Below, piece after piece: positions 19,619 to 29,202 of a DNA stretch of 64,000 nt; positions within the stretch are counted from its first letter, which is position 1, and every line of letters starts with the position of its first letter. The notes beneath the pieces are model-generated. The model saw nothing but the letters and a program-made list of their open reading frames with translations, made no database searches and was not told the DNA's origin. Both the position numbers and the translations under genes were made by a program. The stretch lies in sequence record PX104379.1. One strand, written 5' to 3'. This stretch comes from a phage.

Positions 19619-22600
19619 ATGGCCGAGATTAAAAGAAAGTTCAGAGCAGAAGACGGTCTGGACGCAGGTGGTGATAAAATAATCAACGTAGCTTTAGCTG
19701 ATCGTACCGTAGGAACTGACGGTGTTAACGTTGATTACTTAATTCAAGAAAACACAGTTCAACAATACGATCCAACTCGTGGATATTTAAAAGATTTTGT
19801 AATCATTTATGATAACCGCTTTTGGGCTGCTATAAATGATATTCCAAAACCGGCAGGAGCTTTTAATAGCGGACGCTGGAGAGCATTACGTACCGATGCT
19901 AACTGGATTACGGTTTCATCTGGTTCATATCAATTAAAATCTGGTGAAGCTATTTCAGTTAACACCGCAGCTGGTAATGATATTACATTTACTTTACCAT
20001 CTACCCCAATTGATGGTGATACTATCGTTCTCCAAGATATTGGAGGAAAACCTGGAGTTAACCAAGTTTTAATTGTAGCTCCGGTGCAAAGTATTGTAAA
20101 CTTCAGAGGTCAACAAGTACGTTCAGTACTAATGACTCATCCAAAGTCACAGCTAGTTTTAATTTTTAGTAATCGTCTGTGGCAAATGTATGTTGCTGAT
20201 TATAGCAGAGAAGCTGTAGTTGTAACACCAGCGAATACTTATCAAGCACAATCAAACGATTTTATCGTACGTAGATTTACTTCTGCTGCACCAATTAATG
20301 TTAAACTTCCAAGATTTGCTAATCATGGCGATATTATTAATTTCGTTGATTTAGATAAACTGAATCCACTTTATCATACAATTGTTACTACATACGATGA
20401 AACGACTTCAGTGCAAGAAGTTGGAACTCATTCCATTGAAGGCCGTACATCGATTGACGGTTTCTTGATGTTTGATGATAATGAGAAATTGTGGAGATTG
20501 TTTGACGGGGATAGTAAAGCACGTTTACGCATTATAACGACTAATTCTAATATTCGTCCAAACGAAGAAGTTATGGTATTTGGTGCGAATAACGGAACAA
20601 CCCAAACAATTGAGCTTCAGCTTCCTACTAATATCTCCGTTGGTGATACTGTTAAAATTTCCATGAATTACATGAGAAAAGGACAAACAGTTAAAATCAA
20701 AGCTGCCGGTGAAGATAAAATTGCTTCTTCAGTTCAATTGCTGCAATTCCCAAAACGTTCAGAATATCCACCTGAAACTAAATGGGTAACTGTTCAAGAA
20801 TTAGTTTTTAACGGTGAAACTAATTATGTTCCAGTTTTACAGCTTGCTTATATAGAAGATTCTGATGGAAAATACTGGGTTGTACAGCAAAACGTTCCAA
20901 CTGTAGAAAGAGTAGATTCTTTAAATGATTCTACTAGAGCAAGATTAGGCGTAATTGCTTTAGCTACACAGGCTCAAGCTAACGTCGATTTAGAAAATTC
21001 TCCACAAAAAGAATTAGCAATTACTCCAGAAACATTAGCTAACCGTACTGCTACTGAAACTCGCAGAGGTATTGCAAGAATAGCAACTACTGCTCAAGTG
21101 AATCAGAACACTACATTCTCTTTTGCTGATGATATTATCATCACTCCTAAAAAGCTGAATGAAAGAACTGCTACAGAAACTCGCAGAGGTGTTGCTGAAA
21201 TTGCTACGCAGCAAGAAACTAATGCAGGAACCGATGATACTACAATCATTACTCCTAAAAAGCTTCAAGCTCGTCAAGGTTCTGAATCATTATCTGGTAT
21301 TGTAACTTTTGTATCTACTGCAGGTGCTACTCCAGCTTCTAGCCGTGAATTAAATGGTACGAATGTTTATAATAAAAACACTAATAACTTAGTTGTTTCA
21401 CCCAAAGCTTTGGATCAGTATAAAGCTACTCCAACGCAACAAGGTGCAGTAATTTTAGCAGTTGAAAGTGAAGTAATTGCTGGACAGAGTCAAGAAGGAT
21501 GGGCAAATGCTGTTGTAACGCCAGAAACGTTACACAAAAAGACATCAACTGATGGAAGAATTGGTTTAATTGAAATTGCTACGCAAAGTGAAGTTAATAC
21601 AGGAACTGATTATACTCGTGCAGTCACTCCTAAAACTTTAAATGACCGTAGAGCAACTGAAAGTTTAAGTGGTATAGCTGAAATTGCTACGCAAGTTGAA
21701 TTCGACGCAGGCGTCGACGATACTCGTATCTCTACACCATTAAAAATTAAAACCAGATTTAATAGTACTGATCGTACTTCTGTTGTTGCTCTATCTGGAT
21801 TAGTTGAATCAGGAACTCTCTGGGACCATTATACCCTTAATATTCTTGAAGCAAATGAGACACAACGTGGTACACTTCGTGTAGCTACACAAGTTGAAGC
21901 TGCTGCAGGAACATTAGATAATGTTTTAATAACTCCTAAAAAGCTTTTAGGTACTAAATCTACCGAAGCACAAGAAGGTGTTATTAAAGTTGCAACTCAG
22001 TCTGAAACTGTGGCTGGAACGTCAGCGAACACCGCTGTATCTCCAAAAAATTTAAAATGGATTGTGCAGAGTGAACCTACCTGGGCAGCTACTACTGCGA
22101 TAAGAGGTTTTGTTAAAACTTCATCCGGTTCAATTACATTCGTTGGTAATGATACAGTCGGTTCTACCCAAGATTTAGAACTGTATGAGAAAAATAGCTA
22201 TGCAGTATCACCATATGAATTAAACCGTGTATTAGCAAATTATTTACCGTTAAAAGCAAAAGCTGCTGATACAAATTTATTGGATGGTCTAGATTCATCT
22301 CAGTTCATTCGTAGGGATATTGCACAGACGGTTAATGGTTCACTAACCTTAACCCAACAAACGAATCTGAGTGCCCCTCTTGTATCATCTAGTACTGCTA
22401 CGTTTGGTGGATCAGTTTCGGCAAATAGTACATTAACTATTTCTAATACTGGAACGGCAACTCGTCTGATTTTTGAGAAAGGACCTCAAACTGGAACTAA
22501 CCCAGCACAGACGATGACTATCAGAGTTTGGGGAAATCAGTTTAGTGGCGGATCAGATACAACGCGTTCTACTGTATTTGAAGTTGGTGATGAAACATCT

Positions 22601-23488
22601 AATCACTTTTATTCTCAACGTAATAAAGCTGGTAATATAACGTTTAGTATCAATGGTACTGTAATGCCAATAAACATTAATGCTTCGGGTTCTTTAAATG
22701 CGAATGGCGTTGCAACATTTGGTAGTTCAGTTACTGCTAATGGCGAATTCATCAGCAAGTCTGCAAATGCTTTTAGAGCAATTAGTGGTGATTACGGATT
22801 CTTTATTCGCAATGATGCTGCTAATACCTATTTTATGCTCACTGCATCCGGTGATCAGACTGGCGGATTTAATGGATTACGTCCTTTGTCTATTAATAAT
22901 GCATCTGGCCAAGTAACGATTGGTGAAAGCTTAATCATTGCCAAAGGTGCTACTATAAATTCAGGTGGTTTGACTGTTAACTCGAGAATTCGTTCTCAAG
23001 GTACTAAAACATCTGACTTATATACACGTGCGCCAACATCTGATACTGTAGGATTCTGGTCAATTGATATTAATGATTCAGCTACTTATAACCAGTTCCC
23101 GGGTTATTTTAAAATGGTTGAAAAAACTAATGAAGTGACTGGACTTCCGTACTTAGAACGTGGCGAAGAAGTTAAATCTCCTGGTACACTGACACAGTTT
23201 GGTAACACACTTGATTCGCTTTACCAAGATTGGATTACTTATCCAACGACACCAGAAGCGCGTACCACTCGCTGGACACGTACATGGCAGAAAACCAAAA
23301 ACTCTTGGTCAAGTTTTGTTCAGGTATTTGACGGAGGTAACCCTCCTCAACCATCTGATATCGGTGCTTTACCATCTGATAATGCTACAATGGGGAATCT
23401 TACTATTCGTGATTTCTTACGAATTGGTAATGTTCGCATTATTCCTGACCCAGTGAATAAAACTGTTAAATTTGAATGGGTTGAATAA
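19619..23488 (+). CDS. 34: long tail fibre proximal subunit gp34, 1289 aa
   Basis: 1289 aa, same length as T4 gp34; first gene of the late plus-strand block after rnh. Confidence 0.95.
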   Translation: MAEIKRKFRAEDGLDAGGDKIINVALADRTVGTDGVNVDYLIQENTVQQYDPTRGYLKDFVIIYDNRFWAAINDIPKPAGAFNSGRWRALRTDANWITVSSGSYQLKSGEAISVNTAAGNDITFTLPSTPIDGDTIVLQDIGGKPGVNQVLIVAPVQSIVNFRGQQVRSVLMTHPKSQLVLIFSNRLWQMYVADYSREAVVVTPANTYQAQSNDFIVRRFTSAAPINVKLPRFANHGDIINFVDLDKLNPLYHTIVTTYDETTSVQEVGTHSIEGRTSIDGFLMFDDNEKLWRLFDGDSKARLRIITTNSNIRPNEEVMVFGANNGTTQTIELQLPTNISVGDTVKISMNYMRKGQTVKIKAAGEDKIASSVQLLQFPKRSEYPPETKWVTVQELVFNGETNYVPVLQLAYIEDSDGKYWVVQQNVPTVERVDSLNDSTRARLGVIALATQAQANVDLENSPQKELAITPETLANRTATETRRGIARIATTAQVNQNTTFSFADDIIITPKKLNERTATETRRGVAEIATQQETNAGTDDTTIITPKKLQARQGSESLSGIVTFVSTAGATPASSRELNGTNVYNKNTNNLVVSPKALDQYKATPTQQGAVILAVESEVIAGQSQEGWANAVVTPETLHKKTSTDGRIGLIEIATQSEVNTGTDYTRAVTPKTLNDRRATESLSGIAEIATQVEFDAGVDDTRISTPLKIKTRFNSTDRTSVVALSGLVESGTLWDHYTLNILEANETQRGTLRVATQVEAAAGTLDNVLITPKKLLGTKSTEAQEGVIKVATQSETVAGTSANTAVSPKNLKWIVQSEPTWAATTAIRGFVKTSSGSITFVGNDTVGSTQDLELYEKNSYAVSPYELNRVLANYLPLKAKAADTNLLDGLDSSQFIRRDIAQTVNGSLTLTQQTNLSAPLVSSSTATFGGSVSANSTLTISNTGTATRLIFEKGPQTGTNPAQTMTIRVWGNQFSGGSDTTRSTVFEVGDETSNHFYSQRNKAGNITFSINGTVMPININASGSLNANGVATFGSSVTANGEFISKSANAFRAISGDYGFFIRNDAANTYFMLTASGDQTGGFNGLRPLSINNASGQVTIGESLIIAKGATINSGGLTVNSRIRSQGTKTSDLYTRAPTSDTVGFWSIDINDSATYNQFPGYFKMVEKTNEVTGLPYLERGEEVKSPGTLTQFGNTLDSLYQDWITYPTTPEARTTRWTRTWQKTKNSWSSFVQVFDGGNPPQPSDIGALPSDNATMGNLTIRDFLRIGNVRIIPDPVNKTVKFEWVE

Positions 23489-23496
23489 GAGGTATT

Positions 23497-24612
23497 ATGG
23501 AAAAATTTATGGCAGAGTTTGGACAAGGATATGTCCAAACGCCATTTTTATCGGAAAGCAATTCAGTAAGATATAAAATAAGCATAGCGGGTTCTTGCCC
23601 GTTTTCTACAGCAGGACCATACGTTAAATTTCAGGATAATCCTGTAGGAAGTCAAACATTTAGCGCAGGCCTTCATTTAAGAGTTTTTGACCCTTCCACC
23701 GGAGCATTAGTTGATAGTAAATCATATGCTTTTTCGACTTCAAATGATACTACATCAGCTGCTTTTGTTAGTTTCATGAATTCTTTGACGAATAATCGAA
23801 TTGTTGCTATATTAACTAGTGGAAAGGTTAATTTTCCTCCTGAAGTAGTATCTTGGTTAAGAACCGCCGGAACGTCTGCTTTTCCATCTGATTCTATATT
23901 GTCAAGATTCGACGTATCATATGCTGCTTTTTACACTTCTTCTAAACGAGCTATTGCATTAGAACATGTTAAACTAAGTAATAGAAAAAGCACAGATGAT
24001 TATCAAACTATTTTAGATGTAGTATTTGACAGTTTAGAAGATGTCGGAGCTACCGGGTTTCCAAGAAGAACGTATGAAAGTGTTGAGCAATTCATGTCAG
24101 CGGTTGGTGGAACCAATAACGAAATTGTGCGTCTACCAACTTCAGCTACTATAAGTAAATTATCTGATTATAATTTAATTCCTGGTGACGTTCTTTATCT
24201 TAAAGCCCAGTTATATGCTGATGCCGATTTACTTTCTCTTGGAACAACAAATATATCTATCCGTTTTTATAATGCATCTAACGGATATATTTCCTCGACA
24301 CAAGCTGAGTTTACTGGACAAGCTGGGTCTTGGGAATTAAAGGAAGATTATGTAGTTGTTCCAGAAAATGCAGTTGGATTTACGATATATGCGCAGAGAA
24401 CTGCTCAAGCGGGGCAAGGCGGTATGCGAAATTTAAGCTTTTCTGAAGTATCAAGAAATGGCGGAATTTCAAAACCTGCTGAATTTGGCGTCAATGGTAT
24501 TCGTGTTAATTATATCTGTGAATCTGCTTCACCTCCGGATATAATGGTACTTCCTACACAAGCATCGTCTAAAACTGGTAAAGTGTTTGGGCAAGAATTT
24601 AGAGAAGTATAA
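23497..24612 (+). CDS. 35: long tail fibre hinge (knee) protein gp35
   Basis: 371 aa; order 34-35-36-37. Confidence 0.9.
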   Translation: MEKFMAEFGQGYVQTPFLSESNSVRYKISIAGSCPFSTAGPYVKFQDNPVGSQTFSAGLHLRVFDPSTGALVDSKSYAFSTSNDTTSAAFVSFMNSLTNNRIVAILTSGKVNFPPEVVSWLRTAGTSAFPSDSILSRFDVSYAAFYTSSKRAIALEHVKLSNRKSTDDYQTILDVVFDSLEDVGATGFPRRTYESVEQFMSAVGGTNNEIVRLPTSATISKLSDYNLIPGDVLYLKAQLYADADLLSLGTTNISIRFYNASNGYISSTQAEFTGQAGSWELKEDYVVVPENAVGFTIYAQRTAQAGQGGMRNLSFSEVSRNGGISKPAEFGVNGIRVNYICESASPPDIMVLPTQASSKTGKVFGQEFREV

Positions 24613-25348: not shown

Positions 25349-28300
25349 ATGGCTACTTTAAAACAAATACAATTTAAAAGAAGCAAAACTGCAGGTCAAC
25401 GTCCTGCTGCTTCAGTATTAGCCGAAGGTGAATTGGCTATAAACTTAAAAGACCGTACTCTTTTTACTAAAGATGACTCGGGAAATATTATTGATTTAAG
25501 CATTTCTGCCGGTGGTAACATTAGTGGAAATATCACTCAAACTGGTGATTATTTACAAAACGGCACGTATAATCTTAATGGAAATCAGTTTGTTTACGCA
25601 GGAAAGTATATTGAATTCTTGCCAAAAACTGCTGGAAATGGTGCTTGGGCAAATCAGCACACAAATAAAGCTCCAATTTTCACCGATCTGAGTTCAACTA
25701 CTTCTATTTCAGAATATCATCCACTCATTAAGCAACGCTATAAAGATGGAACTTTTTCAGCGGGTACATTGGTTGCTGAAGGCAGTTTTAAGTTCCATTA
25801 TATTGATGAAACTGGGACTTCAAAATACTGGACGTTTCGCCGTGACGGTGGATTTACTGTTGACAATGGAGGTTTAGCAGTATCAGGAGGTAGTATAACT
25901 ACAACTGGAAATATTGCAGCTATTGGAAATATTACTTCACCTCAAATTAATACTAAAAATATTATTTTAGATACAAAAGCATTTGGACAATACGATTCGC
26001 AATCATTAGTTCAATATGTTTATCCTGGAACAGGTGAAGAAAATGGTATAAACTATCTTCGTAAAGTTCGAGCTAAATCAGGCGGAACTATTTACCATGA
26101 AATCGCTTCAGCTCAAACTGGTAAGAATGATGAAATTTCTTGGTGGACCGGAAATACACTTACTATTAAATTAATGGGTCTTCGTAATGATGGCGCAATG
26201 GTATTACGTCGTTCACTTGCTATTGGCACAATTACCACTGACGAAAATACTAACAACTATGGTTCTCCTACTCCAATGGGAGAAAGATATATTGCTTTGG
26301 GCGATGCTGCCACTGGTTTAAAATACATTAAGCAGGGCGTTTATGATTTAGTAGGTAATTGGAATTCTGTTGCGTCTATTACTCCTGATAGTTTCCGTAG
26401 TACTCGTAAAGCGATATTTGGACGTTCAGAAGACCAAGGTGGAACATGGATTATGCCTGGAACTAACGCTGCGCTTTTATCAGTTCAAACTCAAGCTGAT
26501 GGAAACTCCGCTGGTGATGGTCAAACACACATTGGATATAATTCTGGTGGTAAAATGAACCACTATTTTCGTGGTACAGGTCAGATGAATATCAATACCC
26601 AACAGGGTATGGAAATTAATCCAGGAGTGTTAAAATTAACCACTGGGGCAAATAATGTAATGTTATACGCGGACGGCGGTATTACATCTGTTAAGCAGCT
26701 TTCAATATACAATGGGGTGTATTTAGCAGCTAATAACTCGACCGCTGGATTAACATTCGCTCCAACTACTACAATTGATGGCACTAAGCAAATTTTGTGG
26801 GAAGGCGGTACTCGTGCTGGTCAGAATAAAAGCTATGTAACTGTTAAAGCATGGGGTAATTCATTTAACGCATCTGGCGATCGTAATCGTGAAACGGTTT
26901 TTGAAGTAGCTGATGGACAAGGATATTATTTTTATTCACAGCGTGTGGCTCCAAGTGGCTCTGAAACTACTGGGCCTGTTGTAACCCAGTTCAATGGACA
27001 AGTTAATGCTAGAGGAAGTATTATTACTGACGGAAGTTTTAAAGTTAATGGATTAAGCACTTTAGTCGGTAATGTTACTATGTCTAATGGTTTGTTTGTC
27101 CAAGGTGGTTCTTCTATTACTGGACAGGTAAAAATTGGTGGAACGGCTGATGCATTAAGAATTTGGAATGCTGAATACGGTGCTATTTTCCGCCGTTCAG
27201 AAGCGTCATTACATATTATCCCTACTCCTAAAGATGCCGGTGAAAGCGGTGGAATAAGTAATCTCCGCCCACTTAGTATTAGCCTTAATAATGGTATGGT
27301 GCAAATGCGTCATTCCGTTACATTAGGTGATGATGGTGCAGGCGGTAATATGGTGACGGTTGATAATGATTCTAAAGTTATGGTAATGACGACTAATAGC
27401 CGTATTAGTCCTAACTTCCGTATGCAAATTGGACAGTCGTCTTATATTGATGTGGAATGTACTGATGCTGTGAGACCTGCTGGAGCCGGTTCTTTTGCTT
27501 CACAGAATAACGAAAACGTTCGCGCTCCGTTCTATATGAATATTGATAGAACAGATACAAGCACTTATGTTCCTATTGTGAAACAAAGATACGTTCAAAA
27601 TAATAGTTGCTATTCTATTGGTACTTTAATTAATGGTGGTAACTTTAGAGTTCATTATCATGAAGGCGGTGACGGCGTTTCTACTGGTGCTATTATAAAG
27701 GATCTTGGATGGGAATTTAATAAAAACGGTGATTTTTATTCTCCTGGTAAATTAGGCGCTGGAAATATTAGAATAGGTACTGATGGTAATATTACTGGCG
27801 GAACTGGTAACTTTGCTAACTTGAACACAACTATCGAATCATTAAAAACCGATATTGTTTCAAGTTATCCTATTGGAGCTCCTATTCCATGGCCTACAGA
27901 TACTCCTCCTAATGGTTACGCTATTATGGAAGGACAGACTTTTGATAAGTCTGCATACCCAAAATTGGCTATAGCTTACCCATCTGGAGTAATTCCTGAT
28001 ATGCGCGGGCAAACTATCAAAGGTAAACCAAGCGGTCGTGCTGTGTTAAGTGCAGAAGCTGATGGTGTTAAGGCTCATAACCATAGTGCTTCAGCATCTA
28101 ATACTGATTTAGGTACTAAAACTACATCAAGCTTTGATTATGGCACTAAGACGACAAGTAGCTTTGACTATGGCACTAAGACTAGCAATACCACAGGTAA
28201 CCACTCTCATACTGTAAGCGGTACTACGAGTTCTGCTGGTGCACACCAACATGCGCGCTCAGGTCCTCAGATACAAGCCGGCATACCCAATAACATATTC

Positions 28301-28621
28301 TATGACGGATATAATAGTGTAGGTGCAAACGCCAACGCTAAATTCACTGGAACCGTGAACGGTGCTACTGCAGGGTCGAATATAGCCAAAACTTCTTCAG
28401 ACGGTGCTCATACTCATACTTGGTCCGGTACTACAAGCACTACAGGTAACCATGCTCACACAGTAGGTATTGGTGCTCATACCCATACTGTAGGTATCGG
28501 TGCTCATACCCACACGGTAGCAATTGGCTCGCATGGTCATACTATCACTGTAAATAGTACAGGTAATACAGAAAACACGGTTAAAAACATTGCTTTTAAC
28601 TATATCGTTCGTTTAGCATAA
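25349..28621 (+). CDS. 37: long tail fibre distal subunit gp37 (receptor-binding tip), 1090 aa
   Basis: C-terminal HxH-rich needle segment ending ...[31 protein letters not shown]; longer than T4 gp37 (1026 aa). Confidence 0.95.
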
Positions 28622-28627
28622 GGAGAG

Positions 28628-28645
28628 AGGGGCTTCGGCCCCTTC
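28628..28645 (+). terminator. stem-loop with UUCG tetraloop after gene 37 (weak terminator or RNA stability element)
   Basis: aggggc-ttcg-gcccct; no long U-run, followed directly by the gene 38 start. Confidence 0.4.
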
Positions 28646-28650
28646 TAAAT

Positions 28651-29202
28651 ATGAAAATATATCATTATTATTTTGACACTAAAGAATTTTACAAAGAAGA
28701 AAATTACAAACCGGTTAAAGGCCTCGGTCTTCCTGCTCATTCAACAATTAAAAAACCTTTAGAACCTAAAGAAGGATATGCAGTTGTATTTGATGAACGT
28801 ACTCAGGATTGGATTTATGAAGAAGACCATCGCGGAAAACGAGCATGGACTTTTAATAAAGAAGAAATTTTCATAAGTGACATTGGAAGCCCGGTTGGTA
28901 TAACTTTTGATGAGCCCGGCGAATTTGATATATGGACTGATGACGGCTGGAAAGAAGACGAAACATATAAGCGAGTTTTAATTCGTAATAGAAAAATTGA
29001 AGAATTATATAAAGAGTTCCAAGTTTTAAATAATATGATTGAAGCTTCTGTCGCCAATAAAAAGGAAAAATTTTATTATAAAAACCTTAAGCGGTTCTTT
29101 GCTCTTTTAGAAAAGCATGAGCATTTAGGTGGTGAATTCCCTTCATGGCCTGAAAAAGAACGGAAACCTTGGTATAAGCGTTTATTCAAGCATTACGTAT
29201 AA
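28651..29202 (+). CDS. 38: gp38 tail-fibre assembly chaperone (T4 type), 183 aa
   Basis: 183 aa starting MKIYHYYFDTKEFYKEENY, recognised as T4-type gp38. Confidence 0.9.
   Translation: MKIYHYYFDTKEFYKEENYKPVKGLGLPAHSTIKKPLEPKEGYAVVFDERTQDWIYEEDHRGKRAWTFNKEEIFISDIGSPVGITFDEPGEFDIWTDDGWKEDETYKRVLIRNRKIEELYKEFQVLNNMIEASVANKKEKFYYKNLKRFFALLEKHEHLGGEFPSWPEKERKPWYKRLFKHYV

Follow-up and report, generated by a model that had tools for sequence, protein, structure and literature searches.

The closest described counterpart of the locus considered here is the distal end of the T4 long tail fibre. In T4 gp37 the knob is formed by residues 811-881 and 1010-1026, the stem by residues 882-931 and 960-1009, and the tip by residues 932-959; the chain runs from the knob to the tip and then turns back, the mutations that alter specificity map to the head (residues 932-959), and OmpC or B-type LPS serves as the receptor (PMC9603124). 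PMC11705849, citing Bartual 2010, describes seven iron ions in the T4 tip structure with HxH pairs as ligands; an earlier interpretation of this DNA (below, the sequence-only reading) had given the same role to these pairs. In phages of the T2/T6 type, gp37 lacks the HxH tip and bears at its end a separate adhesin, a gp38 of ~260 aa (PMC3157838). The tips of lambda Stf-type fibres have been grouped with that of T4 as the “T4- and lambda-based RBP family” (PMC9659904), and Ur-lambda Stf is an OmpC binder (PMC12617516). As for the T-even phages nearest to ours, OmpC is the primary receptor and the deep LPS core the terminal receptor of Bas42 and Bas41 (Maffei 2021, PMC8594841 supplement), and FelixPlatter (Bas40) depends on OmpC (PMC8594841 main text). 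The iron needle of HxH pairs, the tip family that unites T4 and lambda Stf, and the allele discussed below can all be found already in the literature and the databases.

The window, i.e., the whole stretch of phage DNA that was analysed (64,000 nucleotides, record PX104379.1), contains a long tail fibre cluster, gp34-gp38, followed by holin t, with the order and sizes of the annotated T4 record NC_000866 (Table 1); a 20-kb stretch downstream is 96-97% identical to several Tequatrovirus genomes. The product of gene 37 is 67% identical to T4 gp37 over its full length. T4 gene 37 has 3081 nt in NC_000866, i.e., 1026 aa, so that the protein here is 64 aa longer; the T4 length given in the sequence-only reading is correct, and the alignment with T4 gp37 shows a difference in both length and repeat count. 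Within 28080-28565, no second open reading frame of at least 60 aa overlaps the gp37 tip on either strand. A Pfam search on gp38 gave no match; therefore, the protein was identified through its identity to T4 gp38 (182 of 183 residues), and it is identical to gp38 of Bas42 in all 183 residues. A distal fibre of the T2/T6 type was considered and rejected: the gene directly downstream of gene 37 encodes the 183-aa chaperone of the T4 type, and gp37 has the full HxH tip.

Table 1. The fibre genes and the elements of the gp37 tip, in positions of the window
Feature	Positions	Strand	Details and basis
gp34	19619-23488		1289 aa
gp35	23497-24612
gp36	24675-25340
Gene 37, long tail fibre distal subunit	25349-28621	+	1090 aa + stop; ORF list, T4 alignment
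Knob/collar domain	27860-28072	+	aa 838-908 (T4 residues 811-881); Pfam, 2XGF alignment
Outgoing (ascending) needle strand	28073-28252	+	aa 909-968, 60 residues vs 50 in T4; homology to T4 882-931
HxH boxes 1-3 (outgoing strand)	28076-28084, 28202-28210, 28244-28252	+
Two 30-nt FDY units	28112-28141, 28142-28171	+	same 10-residue peptide; codon register; T4 has one
Degenerate third 10-residue unit	28172-28201	+	leads into HxH box 2; codon register
Head domain, presumed receptor-contact region	28253-28390	+	aa 969-1014, 46 residues vs 28 in T4
Returning (descending) needle strand	28391-28567	+	aa 1015-1073, 59 residues vs 50 in T4
HxH boxes 4-8 (returning strand)	28409-28417, 28451-28459, 28478-28486, 28505-28513, 28532-28540	+
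Three 27-nt units	28463-28489, 28490-28516, 28517-28543	+	T4 has two; +9 aa insertion
C-terminal strand re-entering the knob	28568-28618	+	17 residues, identical to T4
Gene 38, T4-type fibre assembly chaperone	28651-29202	+	183 aa; identity to T4 gp38, T4 annotation
Holin t	29223-29879

Residues 813-1090 of gp37 match residues 2-242 of the 2XGF chain (phmmer, E=1.3e-94), which places the repeats and histidine boxes in the receptor-binding tip, as the sequence-only reading had it; the Pfam domain Collar (PF07484) is found at aa 843-890 (E=2.7e-11, 43.7 bits against a cut-off of 24). The limits of the needle strands and the head are those of the T4 domains carried over by homology. The tip contains eight HxH boxes, at aa 910, 952, 966, 1021, 1035, 1044, 1053 and 1062. 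The seven boxes of the sequence-only reading are all present; it missed an eighth, KAHNHS at 28076-28084 (box 1 in Table 1), which straddles position 28080, where the region it described begins. Such a set is hardly a matter of composition: all 16 histidines of aa 905-1070 belong to the eight HxH pairs, and shuffling this segment yields 1.4 HxH on average and reaches eight in 5e-05 of shuffles. All seven T4 boxes align with boxes of gp37, and the eighth box falls in an inserted 9-residue unit. The insertions relative to T4 in the tip are +10 (the second FDY unit), +15 and +3 (both in the head) and +9 (GIGAHTHTV). The extra length of the protein is thus explained by the repeats in part: the two of them account for 19 of the 64 residues, and the other 45 belong to the head (18) and to the shaft before aa 880 (27, net).

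The tandem 30-nt repeat encoding one 10-residue peptide twice, reported in the sequence-only reading, is found at 28112-28171, and the near-identical DNA repeats that it had noticed behind the HxH boxes are the three 27-nt units at 28463-28543. Tandem Repeats Finder gives period 30 at 28115-28184 (2.3 copies, score 98) and period 27 at 28457-28520 (2.4 copies, score 100). Between the two FDY units there are 7 differences in 30 nt, a TCA/AGT serine switch among them, and between the first and the second 27-nt unit there are 3 in 27 nt; all of these differences are synonymous, so that the repeat peptide is under purifying selection. The third 27-nt unit encodes VAIGSHGHT, and a 12-nt exact core is common to the units.

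We believe that the tip is very probably an ordinary metal-stapled needle of the T4 type, one rung longer than that of T4, with specificity set by the head. By homology to the T4 structure, the layout would comprise a collar or knob and a long, thin needle ending in a small head; each of three interwoven chains would pass out along the needle to the head and back, and the HxH pairs of the three chains would come together on the axis to hold a metal ion, presumably iron as in T4, in octahedral coordination by six histidines. The extra FDY unit and the extra GIGAHTHTV unit would then be two halves of one rung rather than independent expansions. With one metal per HxH triplet, an eighth site is predicted, occupied if the analogy with T4 holds; judging from the arm lengths, the spacing of the sites along the needle should be about 7-9 residues, as in T4. 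Folding would be assisted by gp38 and gp57A, as it is in T4 (PMC9603124).

The two arms stay matched (60 and 59 residues) because the 10-residue insert of the outgoing strand is accompanied by the 9-residue insert of the returning one. Ten residues out against nine back make the arms drift by one residue per rung, which would call for a slight bulge or for an outer path that is longer. An AlphaFold2 model of the tip monomer, built on a 72-sequence alignment, has collar pLDDT of 70-87 and low confidence in the stem and head (mean 57.8, pTM 0.30); since the monomer model is poor in the stem, the proposed strand register follows from the arm lengths and the T4 domain limits.

The same correspondence between the two repeats was considered across homologous tips. 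The tips were taken from a protein search (the best 120 of 2544 homologues), from 50%-identity cluster representatives, from 80 viral contigs and from 13 further T-even gp37 genes in phage records, and were parsed on the distances between successive HxH boxes, which was possible for 171 of 173 distinct complete tips. All 171 parsed tips follow one plan: a gap of 22+10n residues, m gaps of 14, the head gap, m' gaps of 14 and k gaps of 9, where n is the number of 10-residue FDY units and k is the number of 9-residue HxH units. Among the matches listed, k = n+1 in 170 of the 171 distinct tips (73 with n=1, 92 with n=2, 4 with n=3 and 1 with n=4), and m = m' for the 14-residue gaps in every one. 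By head, the 171 tips group into 59 clusters, and the coupled architectures still recur often when each cluster is counted once.

The sole exception is a tip on a metagenome contig (L003, IMGVR_UViG_3300030021_000020) with n=2 and k=2, the remaining 27-nt unit of which is the 5' part of unit 1 fused to the 3' part of unit 2; an unequal crossover may have caused a deletion here, or the assembly may have collapsed. Five head types are found on more than one stem length, and the coupling is kept each time; one of them occurs with n=1, 2, 3 and 4. One head is shared by the Citrobacter phage PhiZZ23, with n=1 and k=2, and by the E. coli protein P0006, with n=2 and k=3. An exchange of cassettes between the His-box flanks, which are conserved, accounts most easily for the occurrence of one head on different stems; the title of Tetart 1998 names an exchange of this kind.

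The simplest reading of the coupling is that each rung of the needle takes one FDY unit and one HxH unit, with selection acting against unbalanced forms. A more general form of this proposal is possible, and we put it forward tentatively, giving it somewhat less than an even chance: the needle would be built of quantised rungs, each 10-residue FDY unit on the way out obligatorily paired with a 9-residue G-x-H-x-H unit on the way back and the 14-residue HxH units paired one to one, so that the length of the needle (1 to 4 or more rungs) could evolve independently of the head cassette and be tuned, perhaps, to the depth of the host surface layer. The coupling rule is the only part of this account for which we found no description in the papers searched, and it may already have been described, for instance in Bartual 2010 or Tetart 1996/1998; the rest is known biology.

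It is tempting to assign the host range to the repeat copy number itself, as the sequence-only reading held plausible. A longer needle could reach the porin through a thicker layer of LPS, O-antigen or capsule, or could add lateral binding surface. Duplications in the adhesin region of gp37 reportedly widen the T4 host range (Tetart et al. are said to have described them in 1996). In the side tail fibres of prophages, stems with between one and four units bear the same head type, which implies that the length of the needle varies on its own and that selection might act on it. The T4 tip seems to have several binding points for LPS sugars along its length (review PMC9603124). We nevertheless consider this explanation unlikely. 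OmpC is used by T4, with n=1 and k=2, and by Bas42/Bas40, with n=2 and k=3, so copy number alone does not switch the receptor class in phages with short and long stems; the T4 specificity mutations (residues 932-959) lie in the head, whereas the repeats lie in the stem; and very different heads are found on identical stems. In addition, of the 14 other T-even genes for gp37, 12 share the copy number, which therefore does not track host differences among these genes, and the comparison of copy number across related phages revealed no variation among the close relatives examined. A subtler, quantitative influence of needle length on host range may nevertheless exist.

We presume, then, that the head of the longer needle is the likely specificity determinant. 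The receptor of this phage is most probably OmpC, which the head would contact as in T4. The assignment draws on the phenotypes of Bas42, with a tip that differs in one residue, and of Bas40, with an identical head.

A different possibility is that the repeats are a hypermutable hotspot of slippage or recombination, with the copy number flipping as at a contingency locus. The 27-nt units are 24/27 identical and have the exact 12-nt core; the L003 tip resembles a deletion product between such units; and identity between the two FDY units at other loci reaches 30 of 30 nt, suggesting that duplication has recurred, or gene conversion has acted, somewhere in the family. For the gene considered here this is very improbable. 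Its FDY units, with 7 differences in 30 nt and the TCA/AGT switch among them, are too diverged for efficient slippage, and both are nucleotide-identical in Bas42. The 11 relatives with the same HxH spacing all have one and the same copy number, which, together with the 7/30 and 3/27 differences between units, is not what a contingency locus would give. A change in one strand would also unbalance the needle, and unbalanced forms amount to 1 of 171 tips among the matches listed. Across 38 loci, orthologous units are identical in 22.0 and paralogous ones in 20.2 of 30 nt, values so similar that they fit an old duplication as well as repeated events or gene conversion; the FDY duplication in this gp37 is not recent. 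Three readings are rejected, namely a recent expansion by slippage, a contingency locus and an artefact in the assembly of this DNA, since the units have diverged synonymously and the identical architecture is present in independent phage genomes.

Least probable of all, and to be given hardly any weight, is the view that the extra units are structurally neutral loops bulging from a needle of T4 length with no added metal site: the monomer model indeed gives no information on the stem, but the strict one-to-one co-variation of outgoing and returning units from n=1 to n=4 fits a paired extension and not independent loops, the added returning unit has a complete and conserved G-x-H-x-H box, and every histidine of aa 905-1070 is in an HxH pair.

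As a finding on this DNA, the longer tip matters little, being a common and already sequenced allele of a well-understood structure, with a probable receptor, OmpC, that is known from near-identical phages. For the engineering of fibre tips of the T4 or lambda Stf type, it follows that heads appear to be exchangeable cassettes and that a change in the stem would have to be made on both strands together, with 10 residues out and 9 back. One further metal site is to be expected per added rung, which would give 8 irons per fibre and 48 per virion here against 42 in T4.

Considering the position of the long form among T-even phages, the term “expanded” used in the sequence-only reading is correct only relative to T4. 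The form with two FDY units and three HxH units is the commonest architecture in the sample (92 of the 171 distinct tips among the matches listed). Of the 14 other T-even genes for gp37, which are 81-96% identical in nucleotides to the gene considered here, 12 have it as well, and 2 (T4 and PhiZZ23) have the short form of T4. The short stem of T4 is the less common form in this sample. The HxH spacing of the present tip (42, 14, 55, 14, 9, 9, 9) is identical in 11 other T-even phages, including AndreasVesalius, KAW1E185, JK36, FelixPlatter, teqhad, teqdroes, O157 typing phage 3, LH01, JS09 and Aplg8, with gp37 lengths of 1078-1093 aa. GiZh gp37 has the same stem and a shorter head. Exactly this head sequence is carried by JK36, FelixPlatter (Bas40), teqhad, teqdroes and O157 typing phage 3.

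The nearest described relative is AndreasVesalius (Bas42, MZ501050). Its Gp37 also has 1090 aa, of which 1065 are identical to ours (95.9% nucleotide identity); the 25 substitutions are mostly in the shaft (aa 150-200 and 350-450), and the tip, from the DMRG motif to the C-terminus, has the single difference G1009W, in the head (G here, W in Bas42). The gp38 proteins are identical, and so are both FDY units at the nucleotide level. The T4 tip (2XGF) has the same order of collar, needle and head, and its last 45 residues are identical; it differs in having 7 HxH boxes against 8 here, one FDY unit fewer going out and one 9-residue HxH unit fewer coming back. The T4 head is 18 residues shorter and largely unlike the head described here in sequence, and the T4 shaft is shorter by 27 residues (net). 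More remote are the side tail fibres of the lambda Stf type in enterobacterial prophages: their N-terminal bodies are unrelated, the phage types and heads differ, and the tip identity is 57-66%. Nevertheless, the last 160-225 residues of these fibres share the modular plan and the coupling rule, and both short and long stems occur among them.

The chaperone gp38 evidently does not co-vary with the head or with the stem length of the gp37 tip. In the window it shares 182 of its 183 residues with T4 gp38, although the window gp37 tip, whose folding it assists, is 37 residues longer than that of T4 and bears a different head. The head sequence NEGTYFSSYGYFMNGYNTRQSS... is common to Citrobacter phage PhiZZ23 (L092) and P0006, an E. 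coli-derived protein, and is carried on a short stem in the former and on a long one in the latter. Such a pair, occurring in nature, could serve for a test of whether the needle length matters.

The coupling between the strands of the stem (n 10-residue FDY units outgoing, n+1 9-residue HxH spacings returning) is broken by only one of the 171 distinct tips. The exception, metagenome contig L003 (IMGVR_UViG_3300030021_000020, 2170-2230), has two FDY units but just two 9-residue spacings, and carries a chimeric 27-nt unit that combines window 27-nt units 1 and 2. Either this deletion variant arose naturally or the assembly collapsed here.

Features of gene 37, gene 38 and their junction (window positions)
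Feature	Position	gp37 residues	Detail
Shaft mosaic	25349-26900	60-200 and 350-450	
Module similar to the gp34 C-terminal region	26744-27325	466-659	PDB 5NXH, 4UXE, 9X3R; E about 3e-11
Ninth HxH	27653-27661	769-771	RVHYHEG
Hairpin region	28622-28653		C(UUCG)G type
Shine-Dalgarno	28622-28625		GGAG, 5' of the hairpin
Hairpin stem, 5' arm	28629-28633		GGGGC; loop UUCG
Hairpin stem, 3' arm	28638-28642		GCCCC
Gene 38 ATG	28651		3' of the hairpin
gp38	28651-29202		

The gp34-like segment of the shaft is a fibre module common to both half-fibres (gp34 is the proximal fibre). The mosaic pattern of the shaft suggests recombination inside gene 37: residues 60-200 are nearly unalignable with T4, with several indels, and the 25 differences from gp37 of Bas42 (Escherichia phage AndreasVesalius) are clustered at residues 150-200 and 350-450, whereas the tip is almost identical. 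A ninth HxH is present in the shaft, upstream of the crystallised tip fragment (T4 gp37, PDB 2XGF), and is kept in T4 as RVHYHGGGD; it might be a further metal site.

A hairpin is located between the gene 37 stop codon and the gene 38 start; its folding energy is unexceptional (z = -1.55). The Shine-Dalgarno and the ATG of gene 38 are 25 nt apart and, considering that the hairpin sits between them, its folding would shorten this distance. The junction contains 3 more nucleotides in the window than in T4, where the layout is the same and the stem is 1 base pair shorter; this layout corresponds to the split ribosome-binding site already known for gene 38 of T4.
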